55,266 bases of DNA from a virus (lineage: Duplodnaviria > Caudoviricetes): positions 1 to 55,266 of the IMG/VR virus record IMGVR_UViG_3300047560_002167. One strand, given 5' to 3'. How positions within the stretch are numbered: position 1 is the first letter of the stretch; each line of letters starts with the position of its first letter. The translations under genes were made by a program, and so were the position numbers. Below are positions 15,474-45,307 of the stretch, piece by piece. The notes under the pieces were generated by a model that saw nothing but the letters and a program-made list of their open reading frames with translations, was not told the origin of the DNA and did not search any database.

Positions 15474-18400
15474 ATGAGCTCCTTAGCATTAAGATTACTT
15501 GCGGCGCAACAGTTTGCGCAGGGTCCTAATACTACCCTCTATATGTGGGGCAATAACTCCTATGGTCAATTGGGGGTATCCAGTGTTAACAGTTATTATA
15601 GCTGGAGTCAATTAAGCAGTGGTGCCTCTCATTCTGTTGCTATTCGTAGTGACGGTTCGTTATTTGCTTGGGGAAACAACACTTCAGGTCAGTTAGGTGA
15701 TGCTACTACTATTAGCAGAAATAGCCCAGTTCAAATTGGTGTTTCAAGTTGGAGTCAAGTAGCTGCCGGCGCATTTCATACTATAGGTATTAAAGTTGAT
15801 GGTACGCTATGGGGTTGGGGCAACAACACATACAATCAATTAAACAACTACTTATTGCCTAATAGCTCATATCCTATATTAATCAGTAGTGATAGTTGGT
15901 CACAAATAAGTGCAGGTGGAATTCACAATTCTGCAATTAAATTAGACGGTAGTCTATGGACTTGGGGTGGTAACACATCGGGTCAGTTGGGTGTAAATAA
16001 TGCATTTACTAAATTTAGTTTAGGCACAGGTCATTATGCTGCTATAAGAGCAGACGGCACATTATGGACCGGCGGCACTAATGCTTCAGGTCAGCTTGGT
16101 GATGGTACTACGGTCGCTAAACTTATCACTGATATTCCTTCTGTACAAATTCCCGGGAGCTGGACTAATGTTATGGCTTCATCGGATCTTACTTTCGCTC
16201 TCCGAGGAGATGGAACGTTGTGGTCATGGGGGGCAAACGGCTTCGGCCAACTAGGCTTAGGGGACACAATTAGTAGAAGTGCTCCGATACAAATTTCAGG
16301 ACAATCTAATATTGTCGAAATAGGAACTGCAATACACGATACTGCGGGCATGACGACATTTTGGAGAGACTCGGCATACAGAGTGTTCGGTGCAGGTTAT
16401 AACACATTAGGTTCCTTAGGAGACGGTACTTTAAGTTCTCGTAGTAGTCCAGTACAAGTAGCATTCCCACCAACACAAGCCGGATTAGGTGCAGGAATAG
16501 GAGTCGGTTCTTCTATCCTTACTAACGGTACTTTGTGGGTATGGGGAACTAATAACTATGGTCAATTAGGAAATAACACAACCGTCAATCAGAGTTCTCC
16601 TATCCAATTGGGAACAGATAAATGGCTTGCTATAGCAGGCAATGACGGTGGATTATACGGGATTAAAGATAACTATACATTATGGTCTTGGGGTAATAAC
16701 ATATATGGACAGTTAGGTGATGGTACTACTATTAGTAGAAGTAGCCCAGTGCAAATTGCAGGTAGCTGGAGTCAAATCATCGGTGGGTACGGATCAACGT
16801 ATGCACTTGATATGAACAACACACTATGGTCATGGGGCCGTAACGATTTAGGCCAATTAGGACAAAACACCACAATTAACAGAAGCAGCCCTATACAAGT
16901 TAGTACAAACCAGTGGAAACAACTTGAATCTGAAACGTATCACGTAATCGGATTGCGAAGTGATAATGCTATATTTACATGGGGTCAAAATCACGTAGGT
17001 CAATTGGGATTAAGTGATACTGTTAATCGCAGTTCACCTACACAAGTTGGCACTAGTTCGTGGAGTCAAATCGCATCTAATGGCACTGGTACATTTGCAA
17101 TTACCGTAGATAATAAATTATTTACATGGGGTGATGGAAGTCAAGGTGACTTAGGTAGCACTGCAACAGTGTCAAGAAGCAGCCCAGTGCAAGTTGGTAC
17201 AAGTAGCTGGACTCAAATAGCTGCGGGTGGCAGAACAGTGATTGCGACTAGATTAGATTACACCTTATGGGCTTGGGGATTTAATTTAAACGGCGAAGTA
17301 GGTGACAACACCGTTATCTTTAGAAGCAGCCCGGTTCAAATCAGTACTAGTAGTTGGATAACTATTCAATCATCAGGCGGCACAAGTTTTGCTGCACGAT
17401 TGGATGGCACATTATGGGCTTGGGGTGGTAACACCACAGGGCAGATAGGTGATACTTCTACTCTCAATAGAAGCAGCCCGGTTCAAGTTTCTATCGGTTC
17501 AGTATTCAAGGGCATGAAGTATTTAGGTGGAGGTTCTCGTGCTTCCGGTGCATTAGACTTTGGTAATAAATTATGGACTTGGGGTATCGGAACAAGCGGT
17601 TCAAGAGGTGATGGTACAACATCTAACAGGGCTATCGCAGTATTGACCATGCAAGATAAACTTTGGAATACTGTAAATTTTGGATGGAACTCAGGAAGAG
17701 GGATTGACTCTAACTATAAACTATGGTCATGGGGACTCAACACTCAAGGTCAGGTGGGCGATGGAACCACAATTGACAGAAGTAGTCCGGTGCAAATTGG
17801 TACAATGAGTTGGTCTACCGTAGCAGCGTCTAGCTCACTGCCCAGTGTCGTGGGTGCAACAGTAGATAATACCTTATGGGGTTGGGGTACCAACCAGTAC
17901 AACGTACTTGGTCTCGGCGAAGCTACTACTATCGCTAGAAGTAGCCCTGTGCAAATTGGCAATCTTGGGCCAGTTGACTTTTTGAAAACTACTACCTCTG
18001 AATTAAGTGTAGCACAAACAAATGGTATATTCTATGCATTAGGTGGACTTAAGGCATCAACTGCATTAGGAATTAGTACCCCTACTATTCTTCCTAACTT
18101 CAATTTACCATATCAACGATTATCAAAAGTTAACAATAGTAGTTATTCATTTGTAAGTGCAGGTAAGGCTCATACTACTGCAATCACAGTAGATAACAAA
18201 CTGTTTACTTGGGGTGACAACTCACAGGGTAAGTTGGGAGATTCTACATTCGTAACACGTAGTTCGCCCGTACAAATTGCAGGTGATTGGAATAAAGTTT
18301 CTGCTGGCGGCAGTCATACACTTGCGATAGATAGTCAATATACATTATACAGTTTTGGTAGTAACTATTCAGGGCAATTGGGAACTAATACAGGCAATTC

Positions 18401-21400
18401 TACACCTACATGGGTTAAACTACATGATGGTGCTAATCATACACTAGCTATCAAGAGTGATAGCACACTGTGGGTATGGGGTAAAAATGATGCAGGTCAA
18501 TTAGGTGACGGTACAGTTATCAACAGAAGTAGCCCGGTGCAAATTGATGGTAGCTGGAATAGTGTCAGTGCAGGACAACGTCATACATTAGCTATTAAAA
18601 CTGATGGTTCATTGTTTGCATGGGGATTCAACGTAACAGGTCAACTAGGTTTGAACTACAACGCACCGAGACTCAAATGGAAATCACTAGCTGCCGGCAC
18701 TTTCGCTGTTGCAATTGCACCTGATGATACATTGTGGACTTGGGGTCTAGGTACTGCTGGACAATTAGCAGATAGTACCATCATAAGTAGAAGTTATCCT
18801 ATACAGATAGGCATTGAAAATACATGGGATCAAATATCAATAGGTTATACTCATGCTATTGCAAAGAAAAAAGACGGTACAGTTTGGACTTGGGGAAGTA
18901 ACGCACACGGGGAATTAGGTGACAACACAATCGCTCCTAAATCTAGTCCTGTGCAGGTACCAGGTTTATCTAATGTACTCAGTGTTGCTGCGGGTGGATC
19001 ACATACTGCTGTTATTACAAGTGACAATAGATTGTTTATGTGGGGTAACAACATAAACGGTGCACTTGGTGATAACTCAACTAGCTACAGAAGTAGCCCA
19101 GTGCAGTTAGGTACTACTGGTATAGCATCGGTTTACTTGCAATTATATACAACTCATTTCTTAACCACTGACAACCGATTATTTGCTATGGGAAATAATA
19201 CTAGTGGTCAGTTAGGAGACAGTACAACATCAAGCAGAAGTAGTCCTGTTCAAGTCGGTGGTAGCTGGAATAATATCGCTTCTGTCTATAATTCTATCTA
19301 TGGTATTAAAACTGATAGTACACTATGGTCGTGGGGTGATAACACGAGCGGTAGACTAGCTCACGGCAATACTAACAACCTTCAAAGCAGCCCTGTACAA
19401 ATCGGTACAAGTAGTTGGAGTCAAGTATCTGCATTTGGAACTACAATGCTTGCTAAACGAATTGACAATACATTGTGGGTTGCAGGTAGTAATATAGGTG
19501 ATGGCACAACGTTCGGTAGAAGCACACCTGTACAACTAACGGGATATAGTGCAGGTAATCTAAGCATAGTACAACCTTCTCAAGTGGTTGATATTTCAGG
19601 CTTTGCTGACCAAAACAATAACATATACGTATGGGGAAACAATAACACAAGCGGTGTGCATGGTGATGGCACTACAATCGCAAAATATATACCTACTCCA
19701 GTATTACAATTTGCAAACGTAAGTAGTCCAACACAAGTAACTACCGGTAGCTGGAGTCAAGTAGCAGCCGGTGCATATCATTCATTGGCTATAAAGAGTG
19801 ATGGTGGCTTATATGGATGGGGTCTCAACGATAGAGGTCAAATTGGCGCAGGTATAGTAAGTGTTATCAATTGGACTAAGATTGTAGGAGACTTAACACA
19901 GACTTATGGTATCAGAAGTGATGGTACATTATGGGGATGGGGTAATAATGCTGCAGGTCAATTGGGACAAACAAACGTCACTAACAGAAGCTCGCCGGTA
20001 CAGATTGGTTTAGGTACGTTCAGTGATGTTGCTTCGGGCGATGCTCACGTTCTTGCAGTTACAACAGATGGTAAGTTATTAGGTTGGGGTAAGAATGACT
20101 ATGGTCAAGCCGGCGCATTAAGCTGGGCGCAAATATCTGCAAGTCAAGACCCCGCACCATTCATGTTTGCTATACGTAGTGACGGTGCATTATTTTCTTG
20201 GGGAAGAAATAACTTTGGTCAATTAGGAGATAGTACTACTACAGATAGAAGTAGTCCTGTTGTACTTGATACTAACAGTTGGTCACAAGTTAGTGCAGGT
20301 GTAAACCACGTATTGGCAAAACGTAATGATGGATTATTGTTTGCATGGGGTTTGAATAATGCAGGTCAACTTGGTGATTTCAGTACAGTAGCTCGTAGTA
20401 GCCCAATTCAAATAGGTAATGCGTATCCATCACTGTCATTTAACGGATCTAACGAATATTATACAGTAGCACCTAACACTACATTGGCGTTTGGTGCAGT
20501 TGATTGGACTATTGAAATGTGGGTGTTCTTGAAAGGGTATGCTGCAACATCTACTACTCTATATGATACTAGACCCGCAGGCACTGGTTCAACTGCAACT
20601 TATCAACTTATCAACATTTCATCAACTGGTTTCATAGGTTATAGTAGTGGTGCAGTTGTTTCTGACGGAATCGCAATTGTTCCATTAAACCAGTGGAATC
20701 ATATTGCAGTGTCTAGACAGGGCTCTAGTACTAGATTGTTCTTAAACGGTGTACAAGTTGGTACTACTATAACTGATTCAGTATCTTACATTGTAGGAGC
20801 TAGTAGACCTATTATTGGTAGTGATGGTAACGTACCGAACAGTGCAGGATACAACTTCAACGGATTGATGAGTAATATTAGAATAGTTAAAGGTGTTGCA
20901 GTATACACCGGTAACTTTACCGTACCTACATCACCATTGGAAGCAACACAATCAGCAGGTACTAATATATCTGCTATTACTGCAGGTCAAACTAGTTTGT
21001 TGACTGGTCAGGGATTGTTTGATAGATCAGGAAATAATTTAACTATCTCTCCGTTTGGAACTGCAACAGCCGCACCAGTGACTCCGTTTGCAAGTGTTGA
21101 CAAATTAGTAGGAAGAAATGTACTTCAATTGTCTGCGGGAGATTCTACTTCAATGGCAATTGGTAGTGACAATACACTCTGGGTGTGGGGGTTAAATGCG
21201 AGTGGGCAGTTAGGACAAAACAATACCGTAAATAGAAGTAGTCCGGTACAAGTTACCGGTAGTTGGTCATCTGTGACTGCATACAGCAGCCATGCAGCAG
21301 CAATTACTACGGATAATAGATTGTTTACGTGGGGCTTAAACACTAGTGGTCAGCTGGGTGTTAACGATGTAGTGACACGTAGTAGCCCTGTACAAGTTGA

Positions 21401-24400
21401 CGGTAGTTGGATTAATGTTGATGTTGGGTTCAATCATACAATTGCAATTACAACGGATAACACGTTATTTACTTGGGGTAATAATCAATTATATCAGTTA
21501 GGTGACACAACTACTATCAATAGAAGTTCACCCACACAAATTGCAGGTAGTTGGAGCATAGTTAAAGCAGGGGCATCAACGTCGGCAGCAATTGATACTA
21601 CGAATAAGTTGTACACCTGGGGTAATAATGCTAGCGGACAATTGGGTGTAGCCCCTATGTCATGGACTATGGCACTAAATCAGGCTATGGTGCGTTCTAA
21701 CGGTGTTGTGTATATTTGGGGTCAAAACGCATACGGTGAAGTTGGTGATGGTACTACTATACAGAGAAGTAGTCCTATTCAACTAGGATCTACAAGCTGG
21801 ACTGTAATTTCTAAAACTGGATATGTTGTAATGGGTATAAAACCTGATTACACATTGTGGGCATGGGGTATAAACAACCTTGGATCATTGGGTGACGGTA
21901 CTACTATCAGTAGAAGCAGCCCAGTTCAAATCGGCATTGATAAGAGTTGGATGAATATTTTTGTAGGTCAAAATCGTAGCTATGCAAAAGATTCAACTGG
22001 AATAATATGGGCCGCGGGCTCTAATGACGCCGGCCAACTAGGCGATGGCACTACAATTGATAGAAGTAGTCCAGTACAAATTAATGCGACCTCTGGATCT
22101 TGGAGTGTTATCTCAGCAGGTGTATCACATACATTAGCACTTGATAGTTTAGGCCAGTTATATGGTTGGGGTAGAAACGTTGAAGGTCAAATCAACAATT
22201 CACCATTAACATTTGCACAGATCGGTAACGGTGTAGCATTACGAGCAGATAATCAACTATGGGTATGGGGTAATAACGGAGGCGGCGCACTAGGTGATGG
22301 CGCAACTGCTAATAGAAGCTCGCCTGTGCAAATTGCAGGATTATGGAAATCTGCACAGTTACGTGGCGCCGCAGCAACTTATCCGGCAGGTAACGGTATC
22401 AGAACTGACGGTACATTGTGGGGTTGGGGTACTAATACATACGGTGGTATCGGAGACAATTCTACAATCAGTAGAAGCAGCCCAGTACAGATCGGCACTG
22501 ATACTAATTGGTTAAGAGTATTTGGTATAGATGACGCTAACTTTGCAATTAAGACAGATTACACCTTATGGGCATGGGGAAACAACAACGCAGGTCAATT
22601 AGCACAAAGTGATACGGTCAATCGTTCAAGTCCAGTACAGATTGCAGGCAGCTGGTCACTTATCTCAGCTAACGGTGGCACTGCATTCGGTATACAAACT
22701 GACGGTACATTATGGGCTTGGGGAGTAAACGCATATGGTGAATTGGGCCAGAATGATAGAGTATACAGAAGTAGCCCAGTACAAGTAGGAACACGTAGCT
22801 GGACGTCAGTTAGTGTAACTTATAATTTAGTAGCTGCTATTAGAAACGACGGCGGATTATTCACATGGGGTCATCCTACAAACGGCTCTATGGGTGATAC
22901 TACAACAATTGATAGAAGTAGTCCAGTTCAACTAGGAACAAGCAGCTGGACACAAGTTGCAACAACACACGGCGGTGTAGCAGCAATTAGATTAGACGGT
23001 GGTGTATTTACATGGGGCTCAGTAACAGGTGTACCAAGTACACTAAGAAGCAGTCCTGTTCAACTAGGAACAAGTAGCTGGACACAAGTGACTAGTGGAT
23101 ACTTTACTATTCATGGGGTGACATCTGATAATAGATTCTTTACATGGTCTACTCAAGGTTATCCACAGGGTGATAACACCACTGTTGCAAAGAGTTCTCC
23201 TGTATTAACTGTAGCTACACAAACTAACTTATCAGCAGTCTTAGTACCAGCGTATTCTATACCTACTCAAATTGGTAATCGCAGTTGGTCATTGATAGCA
23301 GCTGGGTGGCAGCACAGCATCGGGGTAACTACAGATAATACATTGTGGGGTTGGGGTTTAAATACGTATGGTCAAGTAGGTGATACTTCAACTGCAAACC
23401 GCAGCAGTCCTGTACAAGTATCAATTGCAAGTGGATATAGTTGGGCACAGATATCAGCAAACCAATCTGCAACAGCGGCACTAACAACAACTGGAGCATT
23501 ATGGACCTGGGGTATTAACAATGCAGGTCAACTAGGTTTGAACATTGCGAACACTGTGAACAGAAGTTCTCCAGTCCAAGTGGGTACAAGTAGCTGGATT
23601 AGTATATCTACTTCCACAAACAACATGTATGCAGTTGATTTAGCCTATAGACTGTTTACATGGGGTAACGGCGCATTTGGAGCGTTAGGTGATAATCAAA
23701 CAGTATCACGTTCTTCACCTGCATTAGTTGGCACAAACCTTGAAACGTTAATAGTATCACCTGTACAAGTTGGTAATAGTAGCTGGAGTATGTTAGCTGC
23801 TACTGGATACATGATGGCTGGTGTTACATCACCTCCTGCAATATTATATGCATGGGGTGTTAATACATACGGTCAATTAGGTATGGCCGATGCTGTTACT
23901 AGAAGTAGCCCAGTGCAAGTTATTGCAGGTCCGGTAATTCCAAACAGAAGCAGTCCGGTGCAGATAGCATCCGGTAGCTGGAGTCAAGTGACTGCAGGTA
24001 ATAGCTTTAGTGGTGCTATTCGTAGTGATGGTATGTTATTCATGTGGGGTATCAATTCATCAGGACAAATAGGTGATGGTACTACATTGAATAGAAGTTA
24101 TCCTGTTCAAATCAGCACAAGCAGTTGGGTTGAAGTTGGTTCAGGTACATCACATGCTATTGCTACTATGGCTAACAATAGTGTTTGGACATGGGGTAAC
24201 AATCAATATGGACAATTAGGTCAAAATGATAATGCTAACAGAAGTAACCCTATACAAGTAACATCTAGTTCATTCTCTCAAATTTCTTCTGGTGCAAACC
24301 ATGTTGTAGGTTTAATTGGTAATGCTATTTACGGATGGGGCGACAATTCGTTTGGTCAATTAGGAAGATCATTGTCTCCTGTAATCTGGGATACAGTGAT

Positions 24401-35900: not shown

Positions 35901-38900
35901 CTACATCGCAATCATCAGGTACTAACATTAGTTCAGTAACAGACTCACAAACTCAATTGTTAGCATATGCCTCAACTGCGAATGATGCATCAATCTATGG
36001 GCGAACTTTAACACTAACTAATGCCAGTACTACATTCTCGGGACCGTTTAACGAACGATGGTTGCAGGCAGTCGCAAATAACGGCTCAGTGTTTGCACGT
36101 AGAATCGATAACTCTTTCTGGGTATGGGGCAACAACACCGGTGGCGAACTTGGTTTAAATGACGCTATTGCTAGAAGCAGTCCAGTGCAACTTAGTGCAT
36201 TCAGTAAAGAAAGCATCGTTCTAAATAACATAACTATACAACCTAGTATAGGTAATAACAACACTGTGTTATATAACAACGGAGCTGGACTAATGTGGGG
36301 TTATAATGCAGCCGGTGGTATCGGTGATAACACTACAGTCAATAAATCAAACCCAGTTCAAATTGCACCTGATCCCTCACGTTCTAGCCCTGTACAAGTT
36401 GGTACTGATTATTGGACTCAAGTTGTAGGTGGTGCCTATCACTTTATCGGACAACAAACTAATGGTAAACTATATGCCTGGGGTAACAACGCACAGGGAC
36501 AATTAGGTACAGGTGATATTGGTTTCCGTGGTAATCCTACATTAATATCTAATACTCTTTATTCATCAGTTCAACTGTCAGCCGGTGTATCTAGTACATA
36601 TATGAAAAGTACTGGTAAACTATATAGTTGGGGTGGTAATAACTATGGTGAAATGGCTGCGGATAATTCAACTATAGCTAGAAGTAGCATTACACAAGTT
36701 GCAACTAATAGTGTTTACACGTTACAGCAATTCTTCAATGGTTCAAGTTATACACAAGTTGCTAGTTATAATCACACTGGTGCAATCAAAGATGACGGTA
36801 CATTGTGGTTGTGGGGTAGAAACAACAATGGACAACTAGGAGACTTGACTGTTGTAGATAATAATAGCCCAGTACAAATTGCAGGTAGTTGGACACAGAT
36901 TGAAGTCGGCTACTCTACTACGATGGCTCTCAAAACAGATGGTACATTATGGGTTTGGGGTAATAATAGTTACGGACAGTTGGGCCAAGGCCACACTGTT
37001 GCTAGAAGTAGCCCAGTGCAAGTTGCCGGCAGCTGGAATAAGATAGCTGCAACCGGAAACACTGTGTTTGCGATTCGTACAACAGGTACTCTATGGGCAT
37101 GGGGCAACAATACATACGGAGTGTTAGGTTTAAATGATATTGTTCATAGAAGCAGCCCTGTGCAAGTTGCTGGTAGTTGGACTAATATCACTGCACTCGG
37201 TGACAGTATATTTGGTGTTAAAACAGACAACACTTTATTTGCATGGGGTGATAACTCTTCAGGGCAACTAGGTGTTAATGATTTAATTAATCGTAGTAGT
37301 CCAGTACAAGTAGCTAACGCAGGTACTACTGCAGGTGCATTCATCTTACCTAAATCAAATCCAAACCAGAATGGCAACTCAGGCGTAAATGCAACATCAT
37401 TTATTAAAGACAATGTGTTGTATACGATAGGTAACAACGTGCAGGGTCAATTAGGTTTCGGTGCTGTGACTACAGCTTCCAGCCCAGTGCAAGTTGGTAC
37501 TTTTGTTTCAACATACGTTAATAGTCCTATTCAAATAGGTACTGATAGCTGGAGTCAAGTATCAGCAGGTACAGACCACGCGGCAGCTATTTCCCCTGAT
37601 GGAAGATTGTTCACATGGGGTGGTAATGGTTCAGGTCAATTGGGCGGCGGTGGCGGCGAATATCTAAGTATCTCTACTAACGGTAATTCAAGTACTAATA
37701 GCTCAGGTAGTAACTATGGATTCACCGGTTATGTTCGCAGTGACGGAACATTGATGATGGTTGGATTCAATGGTGGTGGACAATTAGGTCAGGGGACCAC
37801 AGGTAATACCTATAGTAGCCCGGTTCAAGTAGGTGCTACTGGATACTGGAAACAAGTATCAGTCGGCGCAGCAAGTGTCACATTAGCAATTGATTATCTA
37901 GGTAGATTGTGGGCGTGGGGTTATAACGTCTGGTCAAACTTGGGTACTAATGATAGTACTAATTACTCTAGCCCGGTGTTAATTGCGGCTACCAACAGTT
38001 GGGTACAAGTAGCAACTGCAACACGTACTTCATATGCTATTGACACTGCTGGCAGATTGTGGGCATGGGGCACTAATACTTACGGTGGTATAGGAGATGG
38101 TACTACAATTAACAAGTCTAGTCCAGTGCAAATTGGAACTGGTACTGATTGGAAGGCAGTGTACAATGGAGCGTGGTCACTACATGTACATGCTATAAAG
38201 AATGATGGTACATTATGGGCTTGGGGATATAATGCCAACGGTCGCTTGGGTGATGGCACTACAGCCCACAAATCTAGTCCTGTACAAATTCCAGGTAGCT
38301 GGACAATGGTAAGTCATAATGGTGAATATTACACTGAAGGTTGGGATAGTTATGGTGTGAAAACCGATGGCACACTTTGGACCTGGGGCTTCCTGGCAAC
38401 GTCAACGACACCAGTGCAACGTTCTAATGCTAGTGTCACAAGTTGGTTAGGTGTATATGGATACATGTATGGTGCATTTGCTTTAGCAAGTGATAATTAT
38501 TTGTATTACATGAACGGAAACAATGACGCTAATACATATTTTAATTGGTCAGGCGCCGCAACCGGTGTTGTAACTCAACCGGTTGCACTTAGTACAAGTG
38601 TAAGTTTCAAGAACATAAACACATGGCAAAACTTTAGACTTGGACAAATATGGCCAACACCTGATAACAAATTATACGTATGGGGTGATAATAGCTCTGG
38701 TTTATTGGGACAGAACGACCAGATTAGCAGAAGCAGTCCTATACAACTAGGTGCAAATCCAAGTGCGTTTACACCCGCGCAAGTAGTATCAGGTAGTTGG
38801 AATCAAGTCAAAGCCAGTTCAAGTCATACAGTTGCGATCAAGAATGATAGCACACTATATGCATGGGGTTTAAATGCATCAGGTCAGTTAGGCACAGGTG

Positions 38901-41900
38901 ACACAGTAAGTCGTTCATCTCCTGTACAATTACCATCTAATACGAATGCGTATGTTAACTCCGTTCAGTTTAGTTCAGGTAATTACACAACTGTACCATA
39001 CAACGCAGCATTCTTGTTATCTGCAAGTAACTTTACGATTGAGGCATGGATATATCCAACTACAACTAGTGTAAGACGAGGTATCGTTAATAACTGGTAC
39101 ATTGGTGGTGAATTCTATTTTGAGATTACTACAGGTAACAACTTGATATTTGGATATACTAACGTTGCATCTGGTATTTCGACTCCTGAATATACTGGTA
39201 GCACTACTATTAATAGTAATGTTTGGACACACGTGGCTATTGTTAGAAACGGCTCAGCCTGGCGTTTCTATATTAATGGTGTAGCTGATGCAACTACATA
39301 TACATCATCAGACACTATGTACTACTATAATGGTACAACAAAGCCTTTGTTAATAGGTGTTGGTTTAGATTACTCCGCACCGTTTACGGGTAAGATTGCT
39401 GGTTTAAGAATAGTTAAAGGTGTTGCTGTATATACTGGTAACTTTACAGTTCCTACAATACCCGCAGCATCGACACAAAGTTCCGGTACTAATATATCTG
39501 CTATTACTGCAGGTCAAACAATCTTATTGACAAACCAAACGATAATATTTGCCGATACTTCTAGTAACAACTGGACTGTTACTCCGACAGGATCACCTGC
39601 AATAGTACCTGCTTCAGAAATATATACAGGTTTAAGTGTCCAGCCGTTATATCAATGGTCTGTTGTTGGTAAAGGTTCCGGATATATAAACTCTGTCGTT
39701 CGTAATGACGGTACATTGTGGAGTACTGGCTTGGGCTCTTCGGGTCAGATTGCTAACGGGACTACAACTACGTATAGTAGTTACGTATCAGTGGGATCTA
39801 CGACAGTTAACTTTAATGCAGCATTAACTAAAGTAGATGACCAGAGTTATACAGTCGCAGCGGCAGGATTCGGTCAATCATTAGCTATTCGCAATGATGG
39901 TACATTATGGGGCTGGGGACTAAATTCACAGAATCAATTGGGATTTGGTCCCGGAGAAGTCTGGACTAATACTACGGGGGGCACATTTCAAGCTGCCGCA
40001 ATGACTTCCTTGGGTAGATTATTTACTTGGGGTGCTAATACATGGGGAAGTGTCGGAGATGGTACTACTACTGCAAGAGCAACACCTCAGTTAATTCCTA
40101 GCTTAATTAGTTGGACGCAAATGTCTGCTTCTGGGGATTCAATGTTCGCTATTAAAGCTGATGGTACATTGTGGGTCTGGGGAGCAAACTACAACGGACA
40201 ATTAGGATTAGGCGACACTGTTTCTAGAAGCAGTCCTGTGCAGTTAGGCTCTTCAACTAACTGGACTAATGTATCTGCAAACAAAGTATATGTTACTGCA
40301 TTAAACTCATTGGGCCAACTATGGGCCTGGGGTGCAAACTCAGGATCAAACTCAACTGGATCATTAGGTGATGGCACTACTATAGATAGAAGTAGTCCTG
40401 TGCAAGTTGCCGGCAGCTGGTCAATTTTAGGTACATATGATGCAGGTGGTTCGGTGTCAGCCACTACATATGCTATTAAACCAGATGGCACTATGTATGC
40501 ATGGGGTAACAACGGTAGCGGGCAATTCGGTGACTCAACAGTAGTTTCTAGGAGTCAACCAACACAAATAGGCATAGGCTATAGCTGGTCTATGGTTGGA
40601 TGTACTAGTCAATCTATGTTAGCACTTCGCTCAGATGGTACATTATGGGTTACCGGTGTTGGGACTAACGGCGTATTAGGCACCAACGAAGTAATTGCTA
40701 GAAGCAGCCCAGTTCAAATCGGCACATCTGCAAGTGGAGCATTAATACAATGGAAATCAATTGGTATAGGTACTAGCTGTGCGGCTGCGATTCGTGCAAA
40801 TGATAATTCATTATGGGCTTGGGGATATAATTTAAACGGCGCATTAGGTGATGGTACTGTCGTGCCTAAGAGTAGCCCAGTGCAAATTGGTCAAAGTCAA
40901 TGGTTAGTAGTATCAGGACTGGGATTTGGACTCCATGGAATCACTATTGATAACACATTGTTCGGTTGGGGCGGATCATATACCGGTAACGGAACAACCA
41001 TTTCTTCTAGTAGCCCGGTTGCAGTTGATAGTACAGGTTTACTGACTGCACCTTATACACTAGTTTCAAGCCCAACACAAATTGCAGGTAGCTGGAATAA
41101 AGTGTCTACTGGATATCATCATACATTGGCAATTAAAGCTGATGGTACACTATGGGCATGGGGAAGTAATAGTGAAGGTCAACTTGGGACTATCACTAAC
41201 ATGACCCTACTAAATCACGGTGCAACGTCATTCGTGAAAGCTGATAATACGCTATGGACATGGGGTAATAACGCTAGTGGTCAAGTAGGTGATGTTACCC
41301 TTGTATCTAGAAGCAGTCCGGTGCAAGTATTTGCTCCTATTAGTTGGAATCAAATTTCAGATTCATACGAAGGTGGCAACGAAGCCGGCGGCGAAATGGG
41401 TAGAGTCGGTGTTGATGCGTACGGATATCTATATGCATGGGGCAAAAATACATACGGTCAATTGGGTACTAACAACACGACTGGTTATAGCACTCCTCAA
41501 AAGATTGGCGTACAACAATGGAAGATATTAGCAACACCGTTTGGTATTAAAGAAGACGGTACGTTGTGGGCTTGGGGATCTAACGGTGACGGCCGTCTAG
41601 GTGACGGTACAACTTTAACCAGAAGCAGCCCTGTACAAATCGGTCTAAGCAGTTGGATGGCTGTATCATCAAATGGTCATGCAATTAGAGTAGATGGTAC
41701 ATTGTGGGGCTGGGGCGAAAATTCAAAAGGCGGCATCGGTGACAACACAACAGTCAACAAGTCTAGTCCAGTTCAGATCGGCACGTTGACCAACTGGAGA
41801 CGAGTGAATGCTAACAAACGTCCTAATTATAGAGAAGCTGGATTTGCAATCAACTCACTTGGCCAGACATTCGGTTTCGGTGAAAACACGTTTGGACAAG

Positions 41901-44900
41901 TGGGTGACAATACTACTATCAATAGAAGTAGTCCTGTACAAATAGGTACTACTGCAAGTTTTGTCTTTATTTCTAGCAATTCACATAGTCTCGCAATTGA
42001 CAATTTAGGACGTTTGTATGGTTGGGGATATAACAGCAACGGTCAAGTTGGTAACGGAGCTGGTGGCCCGACAGGATCATACATATCAAGCCCAGTACAG
42101 ATCGGTACTAGTAGTTGGATAACAGTAGCAGCCGGCTTTGAAACATCTTACGGTATAACTGTAGATGGAACATTATTTGCATGGGGTAACGCAGGATTCG
42201 GAGCATTGGGAACCGGTGACATTATAAAACGTTCAGTGCCTACACAAGTTGGTACTGATACTTGGAAAGAAGTTGCAGGAACTAGCGGGTATACTGGGTA
42301 TGCTGTAAAATCTGACAATTCAGTTTGGTGGTGGGGCGCAGGTCCTTCAACTTCTAGTCCTGTACAAATTTCATCAGCCGCATCAACTAATCCATATTTA
42401 GATATAGTAGCTGATCCTGATAATGGCCCAATCTATGCTATCACAAATAGTAAAACGCTAGTTACATTAACACCAACAACAACGCCGTTTGATGGTGGCA
42501 TTTGGACTAGTGCAGTAAGTATCATTGGCTACAATGCAGCTATCCGTGATGACAAAACGTTATGGATGTGGGGTGCAAATACTCTTGGACAATTAGGTGA
42601 TGGTACTACTATCAACAGAAGCAGTCCAGTACAGGTTCCTGGTAGTTGGAATTTTATATCAGGTAATGGTCAGTCAAGTAATGGCTGGACTGCTGGTATT
42701 AAAACAGATGGTACTCTGTGGATTTGGGGTATGAACTATAACGGATACTTTGGTGATGACACAAGTACAGGTTACAGAAGCAGCCCAGTTCAACTTGGAA
42801 CTAATAGCTGGATTACACTAGCATCTAGTGGTGTAGGTACATTGATTGCGATTGATGCTTCTGGTAAGTTATTTGCATGGGGTTCAAACGCATACGGTCA
42901 GTTGGGCTTAGGCGACCAAGTAACTAGAAGCAGCCCAGTTCAAGTTATGGCAGGTAGAAGTTTCACACAAGTTGCAGCAAATTATTATGCCTCATACGCA
43001 CTAGAGACAACAGGTACATTGTGGGCTATGGGAGTTAATACTGCAGGTTACTTGGGTGATAACACTGTTGTTGCAAAATCAAGTCCAATTCAAGTTAACG
43101 CAAGTAGTTGGGCTACAATTGCCGCAACAGGATTACATGCTATGGGATCTATTATCGTTGACGGTGTAACTACATTATGGACATGGGGTGGAAACACATA
43201 TGGTCAACTTGGATTAGCAGATAAATTAATCTCAGGTGCGATGAGTAGTCCAGTTCAAATTGGCGCAGTCTATGATTCTGACAGAATTCGTTATTCAAGT
43301 CCAGTACAAGTTGGTCTAGGCTATAGTTGGATAAATGTATCAGCTGGGCCATATGCATCAGTAGCAGCAAGACAAGATGGTACTGTTTGGACTTGGGGTA
43401 TGAACTTAGTTGGTCAGTTGGGTGTCAACGATGTTAAGTATCGCAGCAGCCCAGTGCAAGTTGCAGGTACTGCAGCCGGTAGTGTAGTTTCATTGAATCT
43501 TCCTAAGCAAATATCAATGAACGGCGATCCAATCAATGGTGCTGACACTAGTATTTGGATTCAAGGGCGTGATGGTGGATTATATACGAATGGATATAAC
43601 CTATACGGTCAAGTTGGTAATGCAGCAACAGTGACAAGAAGCAGTCCTGTGCAAATCGCAACAACGGCTATGGGTACTAGCCCCATCGTACCGATCAACA
43701 TCACATCTACTAGAGGATCTAGTTTCGTTGCTGTAGGTCACGGCAATGCTGTTGCTGCTATCGCAAGTAACGGCACATTGTGGGCTTGGGGTACTGGCAC
43801 GCAAGGCCAATTAGGCTATAATACTAATGCAACTACATCATTGCAAGTTAGTGTCGGTAACAATCCTCAGTCATACAAAGTAGGAGAGAATTCTATCGGC
43901 GCAAGTAGCTGGAGTCAAATCAGTGCAGGTTACAATCATGCACTAGCAATTGATTCAACTAACAGACTATTCGGCTGGGGCAACTACGCAGCTAAAAATC
44001 CAATTGTAACTTCTACTATGAGTTGGAAGTCATTCATTAACGATACTACTACTATAGCACTTCGTTCAGATGGCACACTATGGGTTTGGGGCTATGGCGG
44101 CACTGGAAGCATGGGTGATAACACTACCGTTAACAAGAGTAGCCCAACACAAGTAGGTACAGACACATGGAATCAAATATCTAATGGTTCAAACCAAGTG
44201 GGTGGTATCAAAACTGATGGTACATTGTGGTTATGGGGATATAACCCATATGGTCAATTAGGAGATAACACAGTAGCAAATAGAAGCAGTCCAGTTCAAG
44301 TTGCTGGCAGCTGGTTATCCCTATCATGCGGCCTTAACAACACTGCAGCCATTAAAACAGACGGAACGTTGTGGCTATGGGGAGACAACACAAACGGTGT
44401 ATTGGGAGACAATACAATTGCCCCTAAATCTAGTCCTGTTAATATCGGCTCTCGTGCAACATGGAAGAAAGCGGTATTATCATCTACTTCATCTTATGCA
44501 ATTGACAACGACGGCAACTTATATGCATGGGGACAAAACACTAACGGTGAATTGGGTTTAAACGACACTGTAAACAGAAGTAGCCCGGTGCAAGTTGGCA
44601 CATCTAAGTGGATTAATATCGCTGCAGGTCTTGGCGGCAGTGGTGGTTTTGCATTAGCATTACGTGCAGATAACACACTATGGGGTTGGGGTTACAACTT
44701 CAACGGCTCAGTAGGTGATTCAACTGGTATTTCTAGAAGCAGCCCGGTACAAGTTGGAACTAGTTTATGGTCTAGTGTGAATTCAGGCCCATTCTATAGC
44801 AGTAGTTTTGCTACTGACATTAATGGAAGATTGTTTGCATGGGGATATAATAGCACCGGTACTGTAGGCAATAGTACTACTGTACCATATCAAAGTCCTG

Positions 44901-45307
44901 TACTAGTAAATGCGTCATATACTTTATTGGGTGTAGGTAACGGTGTCGCCGCAAACGATCCTAATGGATTGTTGTATGCTTGGGGAACTAACACATATGG
45001 TAACTACGGTGACTATTCAGCTATTTCATACTCTTCGCCGGTATTAGTTGTTACTAATACTATTAGTCCAAATACTAGTAGCCCAGTTCAACTAATGAGT
45101 GGATCATGGAGTCATGTAAATGCAGGTAATGACGTTAACCTAGTTGCTGATTCTAACGGGACATTGTATACTTGGGGTAGAAATGACATGCAACAGCTTG
45201 GATTGAATTCTACTAATAGATTTGTCACTAGTCCAGTTGTAATAGGTACCCAAACACGAGACACGGGCGCTGGAAATAACAATTCAGGATACATCAAAAA
45301 TATCTGA
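29936..45307 (+). CDS. Giant RCC1/BLIP-II beta-propeller repeat protein B (5123 aa; two LamG inserts)
   Basis: Uninterrupted 15.4-kb ORF of the same repeats. It starts in an ATGA overlap with MSNNTNRSSLTQI, which is the second half of a repeat. It ends with a first-half repeat, QTRDTGAGNNNSGYIKNI. Confidence 0.93.
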   Translation: MSNNTNRSSLTQIEGKTGAYAISPVSVGSSWKSLSIGSSHAVAIKNDGTLWSWGSNQYGQVGNNTVSIQSSPVQIGTRLWLSASAGANHSMAIRSDGLLFGWGQNSSYQLGNNGLAYSNYWRMASPGYSHTMLIKADGTLWAVGGNTQGQLGNNTVAAVTSPIQIGTSSWSMVTTSTLNTFAIDINGRLFAWGYNLAGDLGLNDVTNKSSPTQIGTSLWTTVATTAGSVSANDAGYAIDINKNLFAWGFGTNGQLGDNTIVSKSSPVFVGANFIKVAATDGAAVAIDGTGNIFTWGKNDLGQLGQNDTISRSAPSQIPSSYVWSNVVTAQNTMFGLTNTGLLLGWGQNTAGIIGDSTNINRSAPVQIMTNVSKLSSKNYLQTSVIDTSGSLWMWGDNTGGQLGDGTTISRSAPVQIGNSKWAAVTSTISGTLGVTTDNKLWAWGKDSGNYELYFTTSDALAATYRSSPVQTGAGLLSDSPVQIGTSSWVSVSAGTDHTLAIRSDKTLWAWGSNLVGQLIAPQFAGQLVSSPTQVGTSSYVTVSAGNSFSLAITSDNKLISAGNNTNNQLGSSTFSNLNTWSKVVESTGHALAISSDGKLFAWGDNTGGQLGDGTTISRSSPVQIGTDTWTNISINSESTTINLASSFAIRADGKLFAWGNNANGQLGQNDLIAKSSPVQVGAGKSFVQVSVGPTFHVVAIDSVGSLWAWGFNTQGQLGTGDTIARSSPVQINSNSWLQVAAGYSYASAIRSDGMLFAWGGNIGGQLGLNDIINRSVMTQIGTSSWSQVFTVQGTGQSGPRLALRSDGTLWGSGYNANGQLGDGTLTNRSSPVQVGTSTWSKVEIHNNATIGIQQDGSLWFWGVKAPVAGSDNATASFTYSWTQVAGGSQNSYAIRADSTLWGWGYNIAGQVGDNTTASRSAPVQITIGSALWKDVTGGGSFAVAINSQNRLFAWGKNDQGQLGINHTNNASSPVQIAAPLSSFSSVNSGYYHSLAIDTAGKLWSWGSNSFRQLGLTDSAYSYLSWSQVSTSASHSMFIRSDGRLFGVGYNGYGALGDGTVVNKSSPVIIGSEKWIDVSAGQRGDGSTANYTIAIRNDGMLFAWGYNLAGELGDITTISRSSPVQLGTSSWIAVASGTSGNYAIRNDNMLFAWGGDAPSTFSGGPVRFYASSSPVQVSTKPYSKIFANPSGSPGSTPITGAYALALDTDNKLWAWGNNSVGQMGRLTYDSWTSVAITNNQSRTMFGIKEDGVLYAWGTDLQSVADYTQTYNGPTLKSSPIVVGNTTPMYTKFASVSGGYSHMYAISTDGKLYGMGVPNVGYGLPDVYSWSQIRSTGITTYAIRNDGLMFAWGRDDYSQMGDFGTVQNRSAPIQIGTLSWSQLATATGQVSSMAAITSDGRLFAWGYNNQGQLGLGDTNGRQSPVQLGVGYSWRSAIVSVNSHVYMRDDGVLFGSGSNTNGVFAAGAAPASLRSSPVQISSTNYNSVVFVAENSTSTTAILAIDKNQNLFTWGSGLYGMLGDGTTINRSSPLQIGTSKWQSVAAGNRTAAAITVDGRLFTWGGDAAYYTLGSNDKSWRLIYSAGSTTFGIDYAQRLWTWGAGSNGISGTGTTTSRSSPVQIGTSSWALVSGSGEHALATTFGGGLWTWGRNIFGALGSANTVDRSSPVQISSASFPVIVAGPYQSSAAIDSLNQLWTWGSNGGVLGDGTTINRSQPVQITGTWADVSIGNSVMYAIRSDRTLWTWGLNTSGQLGLNNANNYSSPVQIGTSSWLMVSAGSKNFVAAIDVNNRLFTWGANVEGELGDNTTVSKSSPVLVSSGTAGAIAFTGSSSIASTSNINLGAGLFTVEGWFYRTSAVGSNTSFWGSTNGTGSTPKIIFNQMNTGELRVWQNDAAVLTTSTTLVPQNTWVHIAVVRDTVAPGAIKIYVNGQLQPSTTNPSGDYSGITGTFNIGADGEGAYSPFPGSISNFRVVTGVAVYTGNFTVPTNVLTTSQSSGTNISSVTDSQTQLLAYASTANDASIYGRTLTLTNASTTFSGPFNERWLQAVANNGSVFARRIDNSFWVWGNNTGGELGLNDAIARSSPVQLSAFSKESIVLNNITIQPSIGNNNTVLYNNGAGLMWGYNAAGGIGDNTTVNKSNPVQIAPDPSRSSPVQVGTDYWTQVVGGAYHFIGQQTNGKLYAWGNNAQGQLGTGDIGFRGNPTLISNTLYSSVQLSAGVSSTYMKSTGKLYSWGGNNYGEMAADNSTIARSSITQVATNSVYTLQQFFNGSSYTQVASYNHTGAIKDDGTLWLWGRNNNGQLGDLTVVDNNSPVQIAGSWTQIEVGYSTTMALKTDGTLWVWGNNSYGQLGQGHTVARSSPVQVAGSWNKIAATGNTVFAIRTTGTLWAWGNNTYGVLGLNDIVHRSSPVQVAGSWTNITALGDSIFGVKTDNTLFAWGDNSSGQLGVNDLINRSSPVQVANAGTTAGAFILPKSNPNQNGNSGVNATSFIKDNVLYTIGNNVQGQLGFGAVTTASSPVQVGTFVSTYVNSPIQIGTDSWSQVSAGTDHAAAISPDGRLFTWGGNGSGQLGGGGGEYLSISTNGNSSTNSSGSNYGFTGYVRSDGTLMMVGFNGGGQLGQGTTGNTYSSPVQVGATGYWKQVSVGAASVTLAIDYLGRLWAWGYNVWSNLGTNDSTNYSSPVLIAATNSWVQVATATRTSYAIDTAGRLWAWGTNTYGGIGDGTTINKSSPVQIGTGTDWKAVYNGAWSLHVHAIKNDGTLWAWGYNANGRLGDGTTAHKSSPVQIPGSWTMVSHNGEYYTEGWDSYGVKTDGTLWTWGFLATSTTPVQRSNASVTSWLGVYGYMYGAFALASDNYLYYMNGNNDANTYFNWSGAATGVVTQPVALSTSVSFKNINTWQNFRLGQIWPTPDNKLYVWGDNSSGLLGQNDQISRSSPIQLGANPSAFTPAQVVSGSWNQVKASSSHTVAIKNDSTLYAWGLNASGQLGTGDTVSRSSPVQLPSNTNAYVNSVQFSSGNYTTVPYNAAFLLSASNFTIEAWIYPTTTSVRRGIVNNWYIGGEFYFEITTGNNLIFGYTNVASGISTPEYTGSTTINSNVWTHVAIVRNGSAWRFYINGVADATTYTSSDTMYYYNGTTKPLLIGVGLDYSAPFTGKIAGLRIVKGVAVYTGNFTVPTIPAASTQSSGTNISAITAGQTILLTNQTIIFADTSSNNWTVTPTGSPAIVPASEIYTGLSVQPLYQWSVVGKGSGYINSVVRNDGTLWSTGLGSSGQIANGTTTTYSSYVSVGSTTVNFNAALTKVDDQSYTVAAAGFGQSLAIRNDGTLWGWGLNSQNQLGFGPGEVWTNTTGGTFQAAAMTSLGRLFTWGANTWGSVGDGTTTARATPQLIPSLISWTQMSASGDSMFAIKADGTLWVWGANYNGQLGLGDTVSRSSPVQLGSSTNWTNVSANKVYVTALNSLGQLWAWGANSGSNSTGSLGDGTTIDRSSPVQVAGSWSILGTYDAGGSVSATTYAIKPDGTMYAWGNNGSGQFGDSTVVSRSQPTQIGIGYSWSMVGCTSQSMLALRSDGTLWVTGVGTNGVLGTNEVIARSSPVQIGTSASGALIQWKSIGIGTSCAAAIRANDNSLWAWGYNLNGALGDGTVVPKSSPVQIGQSQWLVVSGLGFGLHGITIDNTLFGWGGSYTGNGTTISSSSPVAVDSTGLLTAPYTLVSSPTQIAGSWNKVSTGYHHTLAIKADGTLWAWGSNSEGQLGTITNMTLLNHGATSFVKADNTLWTWGNNASGQVGDVTLVSRSSPVQVFAPISWNQISDSYEGGNEAGGEMGRVGVDAYGYLYAWGKNTYGQLGTNNTTGYSTPQKIGVQQWKILATPFGIKEDGTLWAWGSNGDGRLGDGTTLTRSSPVQIGLSSWMAVSSNGHAIRVDGTLWGWGENSKGGIGDNTTVNKSSPVQIGTLTNWRRVNANKRPNYREAGFAINSLGQTFGFGENTFGQVGDNTTINRSSPVQIGTTASFVFISSNSHSLAIDNLGRLYGWGYNSNGQVGNGAGGPTGSYISSPVQIGTSSWITVAAGFETSYGITVDGTLFAWGNAGFGALGTGDIIKRSVPTQVGTDTWKEVAGTSGYTGYAVKSDNSVWWWGAGPSTSSPVQISSAASTNPYLDIVADPDNGPIYAITNSKTLVTLTPTTTPFDGGIWTSAVSIIGYNAAIRDDKTLWMWGANTLGQLGDGTTINRSSPVQVPGSWNFISGNGQSSNGWTAGIKTDGTLWIWGMNYNGYFGDDTSTGYRSSPVQLGTNSWITLASSGVGTLIAIDASGKLFAWGSNAYGQLGLGDQVTRSSPVQVMAGRSFTQVAANYYASYALETTGTLWAMGVNTAGYLGDNTVVAKSSPIQVNASSWATIAATGLHAMGSIIVDGVTTLWTWGGNTYGQLGLADKLISGAMSSPVQIGAVYDSDRIRYSSPVQVGLGYSWINVSAGPYASVAARQDGTVWTWGMNLVGQLGVNDVKYRSSPVQVAGTAAGSVVSLNLPKQISMNGDPINGADTSIWIQGRDGGLYTNGYNLYGQVGNAATVTRSSPVQIATTAMGTSPIVPINITSTRGSSFVAVGHGNAVAAIASNGTLWAWGTGTQGQLGYNTNATTSLQVSVGNNPQSYKVGENSIGASSWSQISAGYNHALAIDSTNRLFGWGNYAAKNPIVTSTMSWKSFINDTTTIALRSDGTLWVWGYGGTGSMGDNTTVNKSSPTQVGTDTWNQISNGSNQVGGIKTDGTLWLWGYNPYGQLGDNTVANRSSPVQVAGSWLSLSCGLNNTAAIKTDGTLWLWGDNTNGVLGDNTIAPKSSPVNIGSRATWKKAVLSSTSSYAIDNDGNLYAWGQNTNGELGLNDTVNRSSPVQVGTSKWINIAAGLGGSGGFALALRADNTLWGWGYNFNGSVGDSTGISRSSPVQVGTSLWSSVNSGPFYSSSFATDINGRLFAWGYNSTGTVGNSTTVPYQSPVLVNASYTLLGVGNGVAANDPNGLLYAWGTNTYGNYGDYSAISYSSPVLVVTNTISPNTSSPVQLMSGSWSHVNAGNDVNLVADSNGTLYTWGRNDMQQLGLNSTNRFVTSPVVIGTQTRDTGAGNNNSGYIKNI
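35390..36055 (+). other. LamG/ConA-like lectin domain inserted between RCC1 blades (protein B, first)
   Basis: FTVEGWFY...NTWVHIAVVR...FPGSISNFRVVTGVAVYTGNFTVPT. Boundaries are approximate. Confidence 0.85.
38942..39652 (+). other. LamG/ConA-like lectin domain inserted between RCC1 blades (protein B, second)
   Basis: NFTIEAWIY...NVWTHVAIVR...FTGKIAGLRIVKGVAVYTGNFTVPT. Boundaries are approximate. Confidence 0.85.

Follow-up and report, generated by a model that had tools for sequence, protein, structure and literature searches.

The window analysed here is the whole of IMG/VR virus record IMGVR_UViG_3300047560_002167 (Duplodnaviria; Caudoviricetes), a linear sequence of 55,266 bases for which CheckV estimates a completeness of 16% and which probably represents part of the genome of a large phage, sampled in a freshwater metagenome. 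All of its long open reading frames (ORFs) lie on the + strand. Two of them, the adjoining giant genes A and B, are the subject of this account; together they carry 185 repeat matches with a unit of ~50 residues, which places them in the RCC1 superfamily. We describe each repeat, or blade, as a head (strands A, B and C, up to the motif GQLG) and a tail (RSSPVQ, strand D). Individual heads are cited as, for example, A33 or B36, the sets of blades that are enclosed in the parse described below are labelled P1 to P23, and the outermost set is called the root. The features of the two genes are as follows.

15474-29939, + strand: gene A, 4821 residues, 504.6 kDa; 90 detected RCC1 heads and two inferred blades; root blade 1 (head only), P1 to P12 and one Laminin_G_3 insert.
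15513-15575, + strand: N-terminal partial head of gene A, residues 14-34 (...TLYMWGNNSYGQLG); root blade 1 in the parse, interrupted after GQLG by P1.
20418-21114, + strand: Laminin_G_3 (concanavalin A-like lectin) insert (~230 residues), gene A, in P6; PF13385 with E 3.1e-15 and 57.1 bits (cut-off 27.6); a 246-residue segment after head A33.
29934-29939, + strand: gene junction ACATGA; the stop codon TGA of A (29937-29939) overlaps the start codon ATG of B (29936-29938), B lying in the -1 frame.
29936-30019, + strand: the first 28 residues of B, MSNNTNRSSLTQIEGKTGAYAISPVSVG; two orphan tails, with 12.4 and 1.4 bits.
29936-45307, + strand: gene B, 5123 residues, 536.3 kDa; 89 detected heads and one inferred blade; root blades 2-7, P13 to P23 and two Laminin_G_3 inserts.
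35375-36056, + strand: second lectin-like insert (~230 residues), gene B, in P19; a 237-residue segment after head B36; PF13385 from the precomputed annotation of the whole of B.
38933-39653, + strand: third lectin-like insert (~240 residues), gene B, in P16; a 252-residue segment after head B54; PF13385 from the precomputed annotation of the whole of B.

A Pfam scan of gene A gave RCC1 (PF00415) in 60 stretches, RCC1_2 (PF13540) in 41 and WD40_RLD (PF25390) in 23, far above the cut-offs, and the RCC1-like domain model PF25384 was also matched. The repeat matches are of RCC1 type only; the WD40 repeat family is absent from the Pfam matches of gene A (PF25390 merely bears the name WD40_RLD). 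The precomputed Pfam annotation of gene B contains PF00415 and PF13385. Unlike the insertions of propellers, each lectin insert follows a tail, separating its strand D from strand A of the blade that comes next.

Heads and tails were located with a 49-position repeat hidden Markov model (HMM), which was built from the clear repeats of A and B and then divided: the head HMM spans strands A-C up to GQLG, and the tail HMM takes in the C-D loop together with strand D (DxTTxxRSSPVQ; DNTTVNRSSPVQVG). These took over from regular-expression tokens, which were too crude. The best scores in ten shuffled copies of A and B were 1.7 bits for a head and -0.2 bits for a tail; at ≥2 bits, heads number 90 in A and 89 in B, and iterating the head HMM gained a single weak head, A63b. 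The tail matrix returned 161 tails at ≥2 bits, compared with an expected ~182.

So that degenerate motifs did not have to be judged by eye, we measured the distance from each W-x-W-G to the next. The resulting anchor spacings (n = 178) are trimodal: 23 are of 33-43 residues, 125 of 45-58 and 23 of 59-70. The remainder consists of two of 79 residues, one of 109, one of 120 and three of 271-287; the spacings of 109 and 120 residues each fit one undetected blade and those of 271-287 are the Laminin_G_3 inserts. A short spacing means that the next head begins where the tail belongs, and a long spacing provides space for a second tail. The array was parsed with a stack from spacing alone, using thresholds that were set before any blocks were counted: a short spacing opens a block, a long one closes one, a spacing of ≥73 residues closes two and one of ≥95 allows a hidden blade. 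This parse gave 23 closed blocks with sizes of 14, 7, 7, 7, 7, 7, 7, 7, 7, 7, 7, 7, 7, 3, 7, 7, 6, 5, 2, 14, 7, 1 and 7 blades. Multiples of seven account for 18 of the 23 (16 of 7 and two of 14) and, in gene A taken alone, for 12 of 12. When bracket balance was tested against shuffled order (20,000 reorderings of the spacings), a mean of 1.57 multiple-of-seven blocks was obtained (standard deviation 1.21), with a maximum of 9. The observed bracket pattern is real and lies far beyond chance.

The five misfit blocks are all in gene B and arise from insertions or deletions within single blades. Inspection led to overrides at B23, B44, B46, B51, B65, B72 and B78: B23, B44, B65 and B78 are over-long blades with a single tail, B46 is without a tail and is lengthened by a low-complexity insertion, B51 has lost the GQLG loop and kept its tail, and the blade that follows B72 is too degenerate for the HMM. 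A beam search brought every block and the root to 7 or 14 blades at a cost of seven overrides in 181 heads, with a set of overrides that differs slightly from the inspected one at equal cost. Three blades below HMM detection were placed by inference in the gaps that follow A17, A63 and B72, giving a total of 179 detected and three inferred blades, or 182 = 26 x 7. A grammar search with block sizes of 4-6 and 8-10 found no solution, an unfair test (181/182 heads being unsplittable in this way) to which we attach no weight.

The full parse has the topology root(P1(P2,P3(P4,P5(P6(P7(P8)),P9),P10(P11,P12))),P13,P14(P15(P16(P17(P18(P19)),P20),P21,P22)),P23), and its deepest paths pass through six insertions (root > P1 > P3 > P5 > P6 > P7 > P8 and root > P14 > P15 > P16 > P17 > P18 > P19). 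All 23 interruptions follow a head. The linker to the first strand of the child measures 0-8 residues in 22 of them and 14 in a low-complexity case, and where tails are paired at a closing the gap between them is roughly 8-15 residues. The host blades cover all positions from 1 to 7:

Host blades in the parse: root 1, 3, 5 and 6; P1 3 and 5; P3 2, 3 and 7; P5 2 and 5; P6 6; P7 4.
Host blades in the parse: P10 4 and 5; P14 6; P15 3, 4 and 5; P16 4 and 5; P17 2; P18 5.

The 14-blade blocks P2 and P22 have no internal interruption, and we take each to be a putative pair of tandem propellers in one loop. Head identity between propellers is 0.391 in register and 0.382-0.389 at the six other cyclic shifts, with register 0 the best in 48 of 253 propeller pairs; P2b, P5 and P22b contain inferred blades and were omitted from this comparison. 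Since head identity is ~39% in any register, the register test of the 253 pairs gives no clear signal of recent copy-and-paste of whole propellers.

Much of this had been proposed in an earlier reading of the sequence (the original prediction). That reading counted 23 interrupted blades closed by orphan tails, which the separate head and tail HMMs and the spacings reproduce as 23 short spacings and 23 blocks, and it gave the brackets 7 blades (21 cases) or 14 (two cases), as the full parse does with its seven overrides. The tree that it drew is identical to that from our independent parse. Its block coordinates agree with ours to within 33 nt at all 23 starts and 48 nt at the ends, except for P2 and P5, where the mismatch is owing to an inferred degenerate blade; P8, for example, had been placed at 22209-23225. 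Its estimated mass of ~1 MDa is right, A and B summing to 1,041 kDa, and it had also called a few blades and closing tails degenerate.

One joint of the tree was modelled, that of P7 with its child P8 (residues 2059-2755 of A, 697 residues), in which four blades, the last of them interrupted, are followed by seven blades, an orphan tail and three more blades:

21648-22199, + strand: N-flank of P7, residues 2059-2242 of A; blades 1-3 and the head of blade 4, stopping after ...YGWGRNVEGQ.
22200-23243, + strand: P8, child of P7, residues 2243-2590 of A; residues 185-532 of the model, a complete seven-bladed propeller in the AlphaFold2 prediction.
23250-23738, + strand: C-flank of P7; orphan tail AYSIPTQIGN (23250-23279), then blades 5-7.

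The alignment used (A1) consisted of ten segments with 36-49% identity, taken from 121 proteins, that run from end to end without a tail-sized gap (11 rows with the query). With A1, AlphaFold2 gave a model with a predicted local distance difference test score (pLDDT) of 83.5 and a predicted template modelling score of 0.55, low confidence being confined to residues 462-464 and 524-533. VIA-align was run against Protein Data Bank chains ranked by Foldseek. UVR8 (8gqe_B) superposes with Z 46.2 and a root-mean-square deviation (r.m.s.d.) of 2.0 Å over 339 aligned residues (range 185..532), RCC1 (1a12_A) with Z 36.7 and 2.4 Å over 329 (range 200..536), and BLIP-II (1jtd_B) matches P8 with Z 23.3; a fifth or more of the rows cover residues 185-533. 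The complete propeller in the model is P8 as bracketed, and not the first (1-340) or the last (340-697) seven repeats. The Foldseek superpositions in sequence order are poor (r.m.s.d. ~23 Å) and have no bearing either way.

As all 50 VIA-align rows shown fall on the child, they carry no information on the flanks, and the flanks were predicted as a complex instead. Residues 1-184 and 527-697 were given to ESMFold2 as two chains, each with its own slice of A1. The ipSAE value was 0.87 in three runs, compared with 0.00 for the best of three controls, on a scale whose mark is reached by 58 of 80 solved complexes and two of 110 mismatched pairs and is roughly valid when a chain comes with its own alignment. 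The interface comprises 192-204 contacts with a partner pLDDT of 88, and the runs agree in ≥92% of contacts. In the contacts with the least error, LYGW in strand C of the interrupted blade 4 (171-174) is paired with PTQI in the orphan tail (539-542). Parts of blade 1 (residues 5-43) and blade 7 (residues 651-694) also touch the other flank chain, which we read as the predicted closure of a 4 + 3 ring. In the predictions, then, a complete propeller stands between strands c and d of another propeller's blade. The model points to closure of seven blades into one propeller for P8, the same being implied for the other blocks by their counts of seven, and we infer that all 23 insertions would fold like this pair.

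The outermost levels of the tree cross from one gene to the other. Gene A parsed alone leaves an open stack [1,7], with root blade 1 lacking a tail and P1 having seven heads and six tails, and its product terminates in ...GNNNDGQLGDGT*, a head without a tail. The ORF break falls in the C-D loop of P1 blade 7. In the parse, the first of the two tails that open B goes to P1 blade 7, the head of which is at the C-terminus of A, and the second goes to root blade 1 at the N-terminus of A. The open stack of A and the two opening tails of B thus make everything in A beyond its first 34 residues an insertion into root blade 1. The root is itself a seven-blade set, made up of the N-terminal partial head of A and of B1, B2, B10, B11, B81 and B89, and is common to both genes. 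The original prediction had listed P1 under gene A; in fact its P1 and its root both extend over the gene boundary.

The N-termini of A-like proteins (that of A itself, 15474-15575, and those of the homologues P0015, P0020, P0040 and P0049) share a stretch of ~17-25 leucine-rich residues (M..L...L...) followed by a partial head (...LY.WG.N..GQ.G). To judge by its sequence, this stretch may take the place of the first blade's strands A and B, or it may have another role.

A homology search limited to proteins of 2651-8437 residues scored 1391 proteins, 748 of them at E ≤0.001; the counts given here cover the 118 listed proteins other than those of the window. The same automatic parse, which is rough for these proteins because the HMM was trained on this window, found 454 closed blocks, of which 214 have exactly seven blades; the permutation null (300 runs) has a mean of 21 such blocks and a maximum of 35. 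At least three blocks of exactly seven occur in 37 of the 118. A further design is represented by 48 of the 118, which have at most one short spacing and resemble plain tandem arrays. Given 214 seven-blade blocks among 454, this survey of large RCC1 proteins identifies the nested grammar as a recurring design, and nested and tandem designs coexist in the family. In 18 of the 48 tandem-like proteins the number of detected heads is a multiple of 7 (e.g. 84, 77, 70, 63 and 56).

Chains that end or begin within a blade are also found among the homologues. Twenty-seven of the 118 end ≤16 residues after their last W-x-W-G (e.g. ...GNNNNGQLGDGT and ...GNNSNGQLGDGT); four of these head-ended proteins finish with ...GQLGD[GN]T and nine with ...WGDD[SN][YF]GQ, and ...GQLGL and ...GQLGNLR also recur. 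Twenty-four of the 118 open with a methionine and then a tail (M-x-x-T-(x)-RSSPVQV, e.g. MSNSTNRSSPVQV... and MSITRSSPVQV...), and in these a second tail-like stretch usually precedes the first head. Several head-ended and tail-opened homologues whose longest contigs are of equal size suggest adjacent gene pairs, without amounting to proof. The gene break inside a blade is conserved, recurring in the protein sequences of these distant homologues and in the closer strains described below, and what the original prediction had treated as one protein is encoded by two ORFs. Two homologues, P0113 and P0074, have a tail at the start and a head at the end, which suggests trees that are spread over three or more genes. 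In the IMG/VR loci, by comparison, the gap pattern of P7(P8) was present in none of 51 long alignments (L001-L021) and an A/B-like junction gave no hits (L001-L022); loci L023-L029 contain a different kind of gene.

The explanation that we favour, with a probability of about 0.75 as a whole, is that A and B form a nested tree of propellers built from two chains. They would make up one self-similar assembly of ~26 seven-bladed RCC1-type propellers, with 182 blades and a mass of 1.04 MDa. At 23 places the chain would leave a blade after strand C, build a complete propeller (14 blades in two cases), which may itself be interrupted, and then return to supply the missing strand D, each child being held to its parent by two adjacent chain crossings. 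The three lectin-like Laminin_G_3 domains would sit at blade boundaries. The first 28 residues of B would give strand D to the last blade of A and then to its first (root blade 1), and B would go on to build the remainder of the root. Our reading is that A and B are two polypeptides joined by strand donation and synthesized in step through the stop-start overlap (ATGA), probably by coupled synthesis; they would assemble through blades that are completed in trans and staple one chain to the other. The nested architecture as such we regard as very likely: it is supported by the count of seven at each level, by the model of the child as a propeller and by the predicted flank ring with its orphan tail. 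These are also the grounds on which the claim of the original prediction that propellers are grafted into the C-D loops of others, as a tree, holds up.

A number of points weigh against this explanation. The parse depends on seven overrides and on three blades that are inferred, and of these all but two belong to gene B; nine closing tails have degenerated beyond the reach of the tail matrix and are identified only by length and a strand-like pattern. Without an alignment AlphaFold2 gave a pLDDT of 41.6 for P7 with P8; the ten homologous rows of A1, on which the model rests, were chosen for having the same gap pattern. The outer propeller was judged from two separate chains and not from a full-chain model, and its pass may reflect likeness to solved RCC1 structures, in which case any 4 + 3 RCC1 blades could pass. 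Only one of the 23 insertions was modelled. The evidence from relatives at the junction, given below, consists of the lack of an insertion or deletion that would restore a single frame, and not of retention of the TGA itself. With regard to function, A and B contain no recognisable attachment domain, the first head being preceded, and the last tail followed, by ~20 residues, and the record is fragmentary, with its host unassigned.

The genes upstream of A bear on what the tree might do:

1554-7175, + strand: 1873-residue protein with seven Laminin_G_3 stretches; its C-terminal part matches PHROGs named baseplate wedge subunit and virion structural protein.
14413-14937, + strand: small tail-fibre-like gene; phrog_7760 and phrog_9017, tail fiber protein.
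14904-15473, + strand: tail assembly chaperone-like gene; PF16778 (Phage_tail_APC) with E 4.7e-10 and phrog_4912, tail fiber assembly; it ends one base before gene A.

An upstream protein of 1063 residues also matches phrog_5838 (virion structural protein) over its full length, and genes A and B thus lie in a tail/baseplate module. In the 1873-residue protein the part that matches the baseplate wedge PHROG is the last ~200 residues, and there are weaker Laminin_G_1/2 and lectin-like Toxin_R_bind_N matches. Three large ORFs (7201-11166, 1321 residues; 1-1185, ≥394 residues; 53159-55207, 682 residues) had no PHROG or Pfam match at E ≤0.001. A neighbouring gene had no Megablast match among 50,697 phage records, and the best relative at the protein level is only 37% identical. 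Downstream of B are methyltransferase-like genes, a 2-oxoglutarate-Fe(II) [2OG-Fe(II)] oxygenase and ribonucleotide reductase. One weak PHROG match named 'tail protein' (phrog_20500, E 4.7e-13) was also obtained, with no single stretch passing.

RCC1 propellers occur in similar surroundings in other phages. The cultured Synechococcus phage S-SRM01 (Kyanoviridae) has single RCC1 genes that adjoin baseplate wedge and long tail fibre genes, the BFVD matches include proteins named tail fibre (e.g. from the Pseudomonas phages Littlefix and PollyC), and the IMG/VR loci L023-L028 contain fibre-like genes that end in one RCC1 propeller. These last loci are near-identical contigs with three or four consecutive paralogous fibre-like genes (~1885-7033, 569-717 residues), two of which begin with MSQS.AQL...; the genes stop after strands A-B of an RCC1 blade (...SSGNHSSFAIKTVT*), an ordinary closure of the velcro type.

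With baseplate, fibre and chaperone genes as neighbours and RCC1 propellers in fibre contexts elsewhere, we lean slightly towards A and B being a multivalent host-binding tail appendage of a large T4-like (Kyanoviridae-like) freshwater phage, as the gene context suggests. The tree, compact and doubly tethered, would present many propeller faces as well as three lectin domains, and attachment to the tail could be through another protein. The original prediction had gone further and called the assembly a virion appendage, for which the gene neighbourhood is the sole basis. It is also possible, though we think it unlikely, that a genuine tree of this kind lies outside the virion and acts in or on the host cell as a scaffold, a decoy or in DNA handling. 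In favour of this, no attachment domain was found in A or B, the genes downstream of B include methyltransferase-like, oxygenase and ribonucleotide reductase genes, and PHROGs files phage RCC1 families under 'DNA, RNA and nucleotide metabolism'; this category, however, is by name only and stems from the eukaryotic family name rather than from a test. DNA ordering is likewise a speculation in the paper on the jumbo coliphage phAPEC6, which has eleven RCC1-like genes (PMC7247149). On the other side, A and B directly follow baseplate-like, fibre-like and tail-chaperone genes on the same strand, RCC1 propellers terminate fibre-like proteins in other phages, and lectin-type inserts are suited to binding at a surface.

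At the junction, the two-chain tree has to be weighed against a single chain of 9,944 residues made by a -1 frameshift between 29906 and 29936, with the break as a recoding site. This would account for the way in which the tail runs on exactly across the break (DGT | MSNNTNRSSLTQ), for the conservation of the break and for the B frame being open for 30 nt upstream of its ATG. Contigs from two other studies cross the junction with ~8-9% divergence (roughly 92% identity): one of 1,853 bases aligns gap-free over 28901-30629 with 140 differences, and one of 229 bases does so over 29762-29986 with 20. A further contig of 14,888 bases, probably from the source sample, is identical to the window over 28900-31000 but is not independent of it. 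No insertions or deletions are listed for any contig alignment across the junction. Reading on in the A frame leads to another stop at 29964-29966, and the B frame does not open until 29906; with no insertion or deletion, the two frames cannot form one ORF in these relatives. The sole stretch in which both frames are open, 29906-29936, was read by eye and contains no slippery heptamer of the type X XXY YYZ, and no unusual RNA structure was found around the junction (z -0.84 over 121 nt, pseudoknots excluded). The sole clear hairpin, a perfect 9 bp stem (GGGGCUUAU / AUAAGCCCC, 29986-30008), lies ~50 nt into gene B. Moreover, B-like homologues start with a methionine at the junction spot, the ATGA overlap is an ordinary coupling signal, and the position of the break varies among classes of homologue (after GQ, GQLGL or GQLGDGT), a variation more in keeping with chain breaks in a tolerant loop than with one recoding signal. 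We therefore consider a frameshifted single chain improbable.

A much less probable arrangement is that of beads on a string, in which ~26 propellers would each be formed from seven repeats that are consecutive in sequence and the irregularities would be decayed repeats, that is, three-stranded blades and spare strands. The 48 homologues above that have at most one short spacing look like such arrays, and several heads and tails of A and B are degenerate. Decay, however, would not give 7 or 14 blades per bracket together with parents that sum to 7, at 18 of 23 against a null maximum of 9; the complete propeller in the model is the bracketed child and not the first or the last seven repeats; and the predictions pair the orphan tail with the blade that is interrupted. 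Least credible of all is that repeat misassembly or a recent frameshift created the pattern and the split, for although this is a metagenome assembly of a region whose proteins are repetitive, the ORFs stay open for 14.5 and 15.4 kb, the divergent contigs of the two other studies span the junction gap-free, the split recurs in homologues of 30-47% identity and blade heads that are ~39% identical are too divergent to mislead an assembler.

The original prediction knew of no described protein with this architecture, yet the joint itself has a precedent in yeast Trm734, and the grammar is found again in many giant RCC1 proteins from metagenomes. The Trm734 chain starts with strand d7 of propeller BPC, builds BPA as far as strand c7 and then the whole of BPB, lays down d7 of BPA and then builds BPC (PMC6847430). 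As there described, it too places a complete propeller between strands c and d of another's blade and follows the same bracket language, at a depth of two. It differs in having WD40 repeats, insertion only at blade 7 (a velcro variant), three propellers and one chain of ~1000 residues, whereas A and B have RCC1 repeats, 23 insertions at blades 1 to 7, six levels, ~26 propellers and two chains. A and B thus resemble the Trm734 type in how they work and are not members of it by descent. The joint is known, and the extension would lie in an unprecedented depth and number and in the use of two chains with a conserved break. DDB1, CPSF160 and SF3B3 are said to represent a comparable triple-propeller type.

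In Sec13 with Nup145C or Sec31, a propeller of one chain is completed by strands of another. The difference is that a whole blade is donated there, to a six-bladed propeller, whereas in A and B single D strands would be donated to two blades.

RCC1, UVR8, the RCC1-like domains of HERC2 and BLIP-II share with A and B the repeat family (PF00415, PF13540 and PF25390) and the seven-bladed fold, but they have one uninterrupted propeller per domain. A function in Ran exchange, UV-B perception or β-lactamase binding is not implied for A and B by this likeness, and Ran exchange would be unexpected in a phage of bacteria. The phage fibre-like proteins (those of L023-L028, Littlefix and PollyC) and the single RCC1 genes beside the fibre gene of S-SRM01 resemble A and B in having an RCC1 propeller in a fibre context; the fibre-like proteins differ in carrying one propeller after a fibre-like N-terminal part, without nesting. 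Giant RCC1-only proteins, predicted to be extracellular, have been reported from gut Oscillospiraceae (bioRxiv 10.1101/2023.11.21.568195); these are bacterial and are described as a single repeating domain, with nesting unmentioned. No description of nested RCC1 propellers or of a recursive propeller tree was found in the full-text literature, in which most subscription journals and supplements are not covered, and the text of PMC9218822 mentions neither nesting nor insertion.

Domain insertion usually occurs once, and rarely twice, in a chain; here the same fold appears to be inserted into itself 23 times. The rule appears strict, insertion always following strand C and always comprising a whole multiple of seven blades, and the sequence approximates a balanced-bracket language. 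If true, the architecture would offer a test case for the folding of very large β-rich proteins, in which the leaves could fold first and unite the halves of their parents, and a route to rigid, branched, multivalent binders from one module, which would be of interest for protein design. Linear repeat counting would then misdescribe a large group of metagenomic giant proteins, and the conserved break within a blade suggests that strand donation may be a general means of linking giant subunits. In phage biology, the tree would indicate a so far unexplored kind of structure by which large phages of fresh and marine waters recognise their hosts. We give even odds to the widest form of the proposal, namely that there is a class of recursive dendritic proteins (depth six, 26 units, two or more chains stapled at conserved breaks) that form ~1 MDa bush-like, multivalent tail adhesins of large aquatic phages, with a grammar common to an undescribed group of giant RCC1 proteins.

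Some minor observations concern the locus and its relatives. Homologue P0003 (3583 residues, on a 38,656-base contig that may not be independent of the window) corresponds exactly to residues 1239-4821 of A and has the same stop. An antisense ORF of 164 residues inside gene A (25871-26365, minus strand) is probably not a gene. A 2OG-Fe(II) oxygenase is found a few genes past the RCC1 genes both in the window (47708-48412) and in S-SRM01 (L022, 8956-9414), where it sits amid glycosyltransferase, sulfotransferase and sugar epimerase genes.

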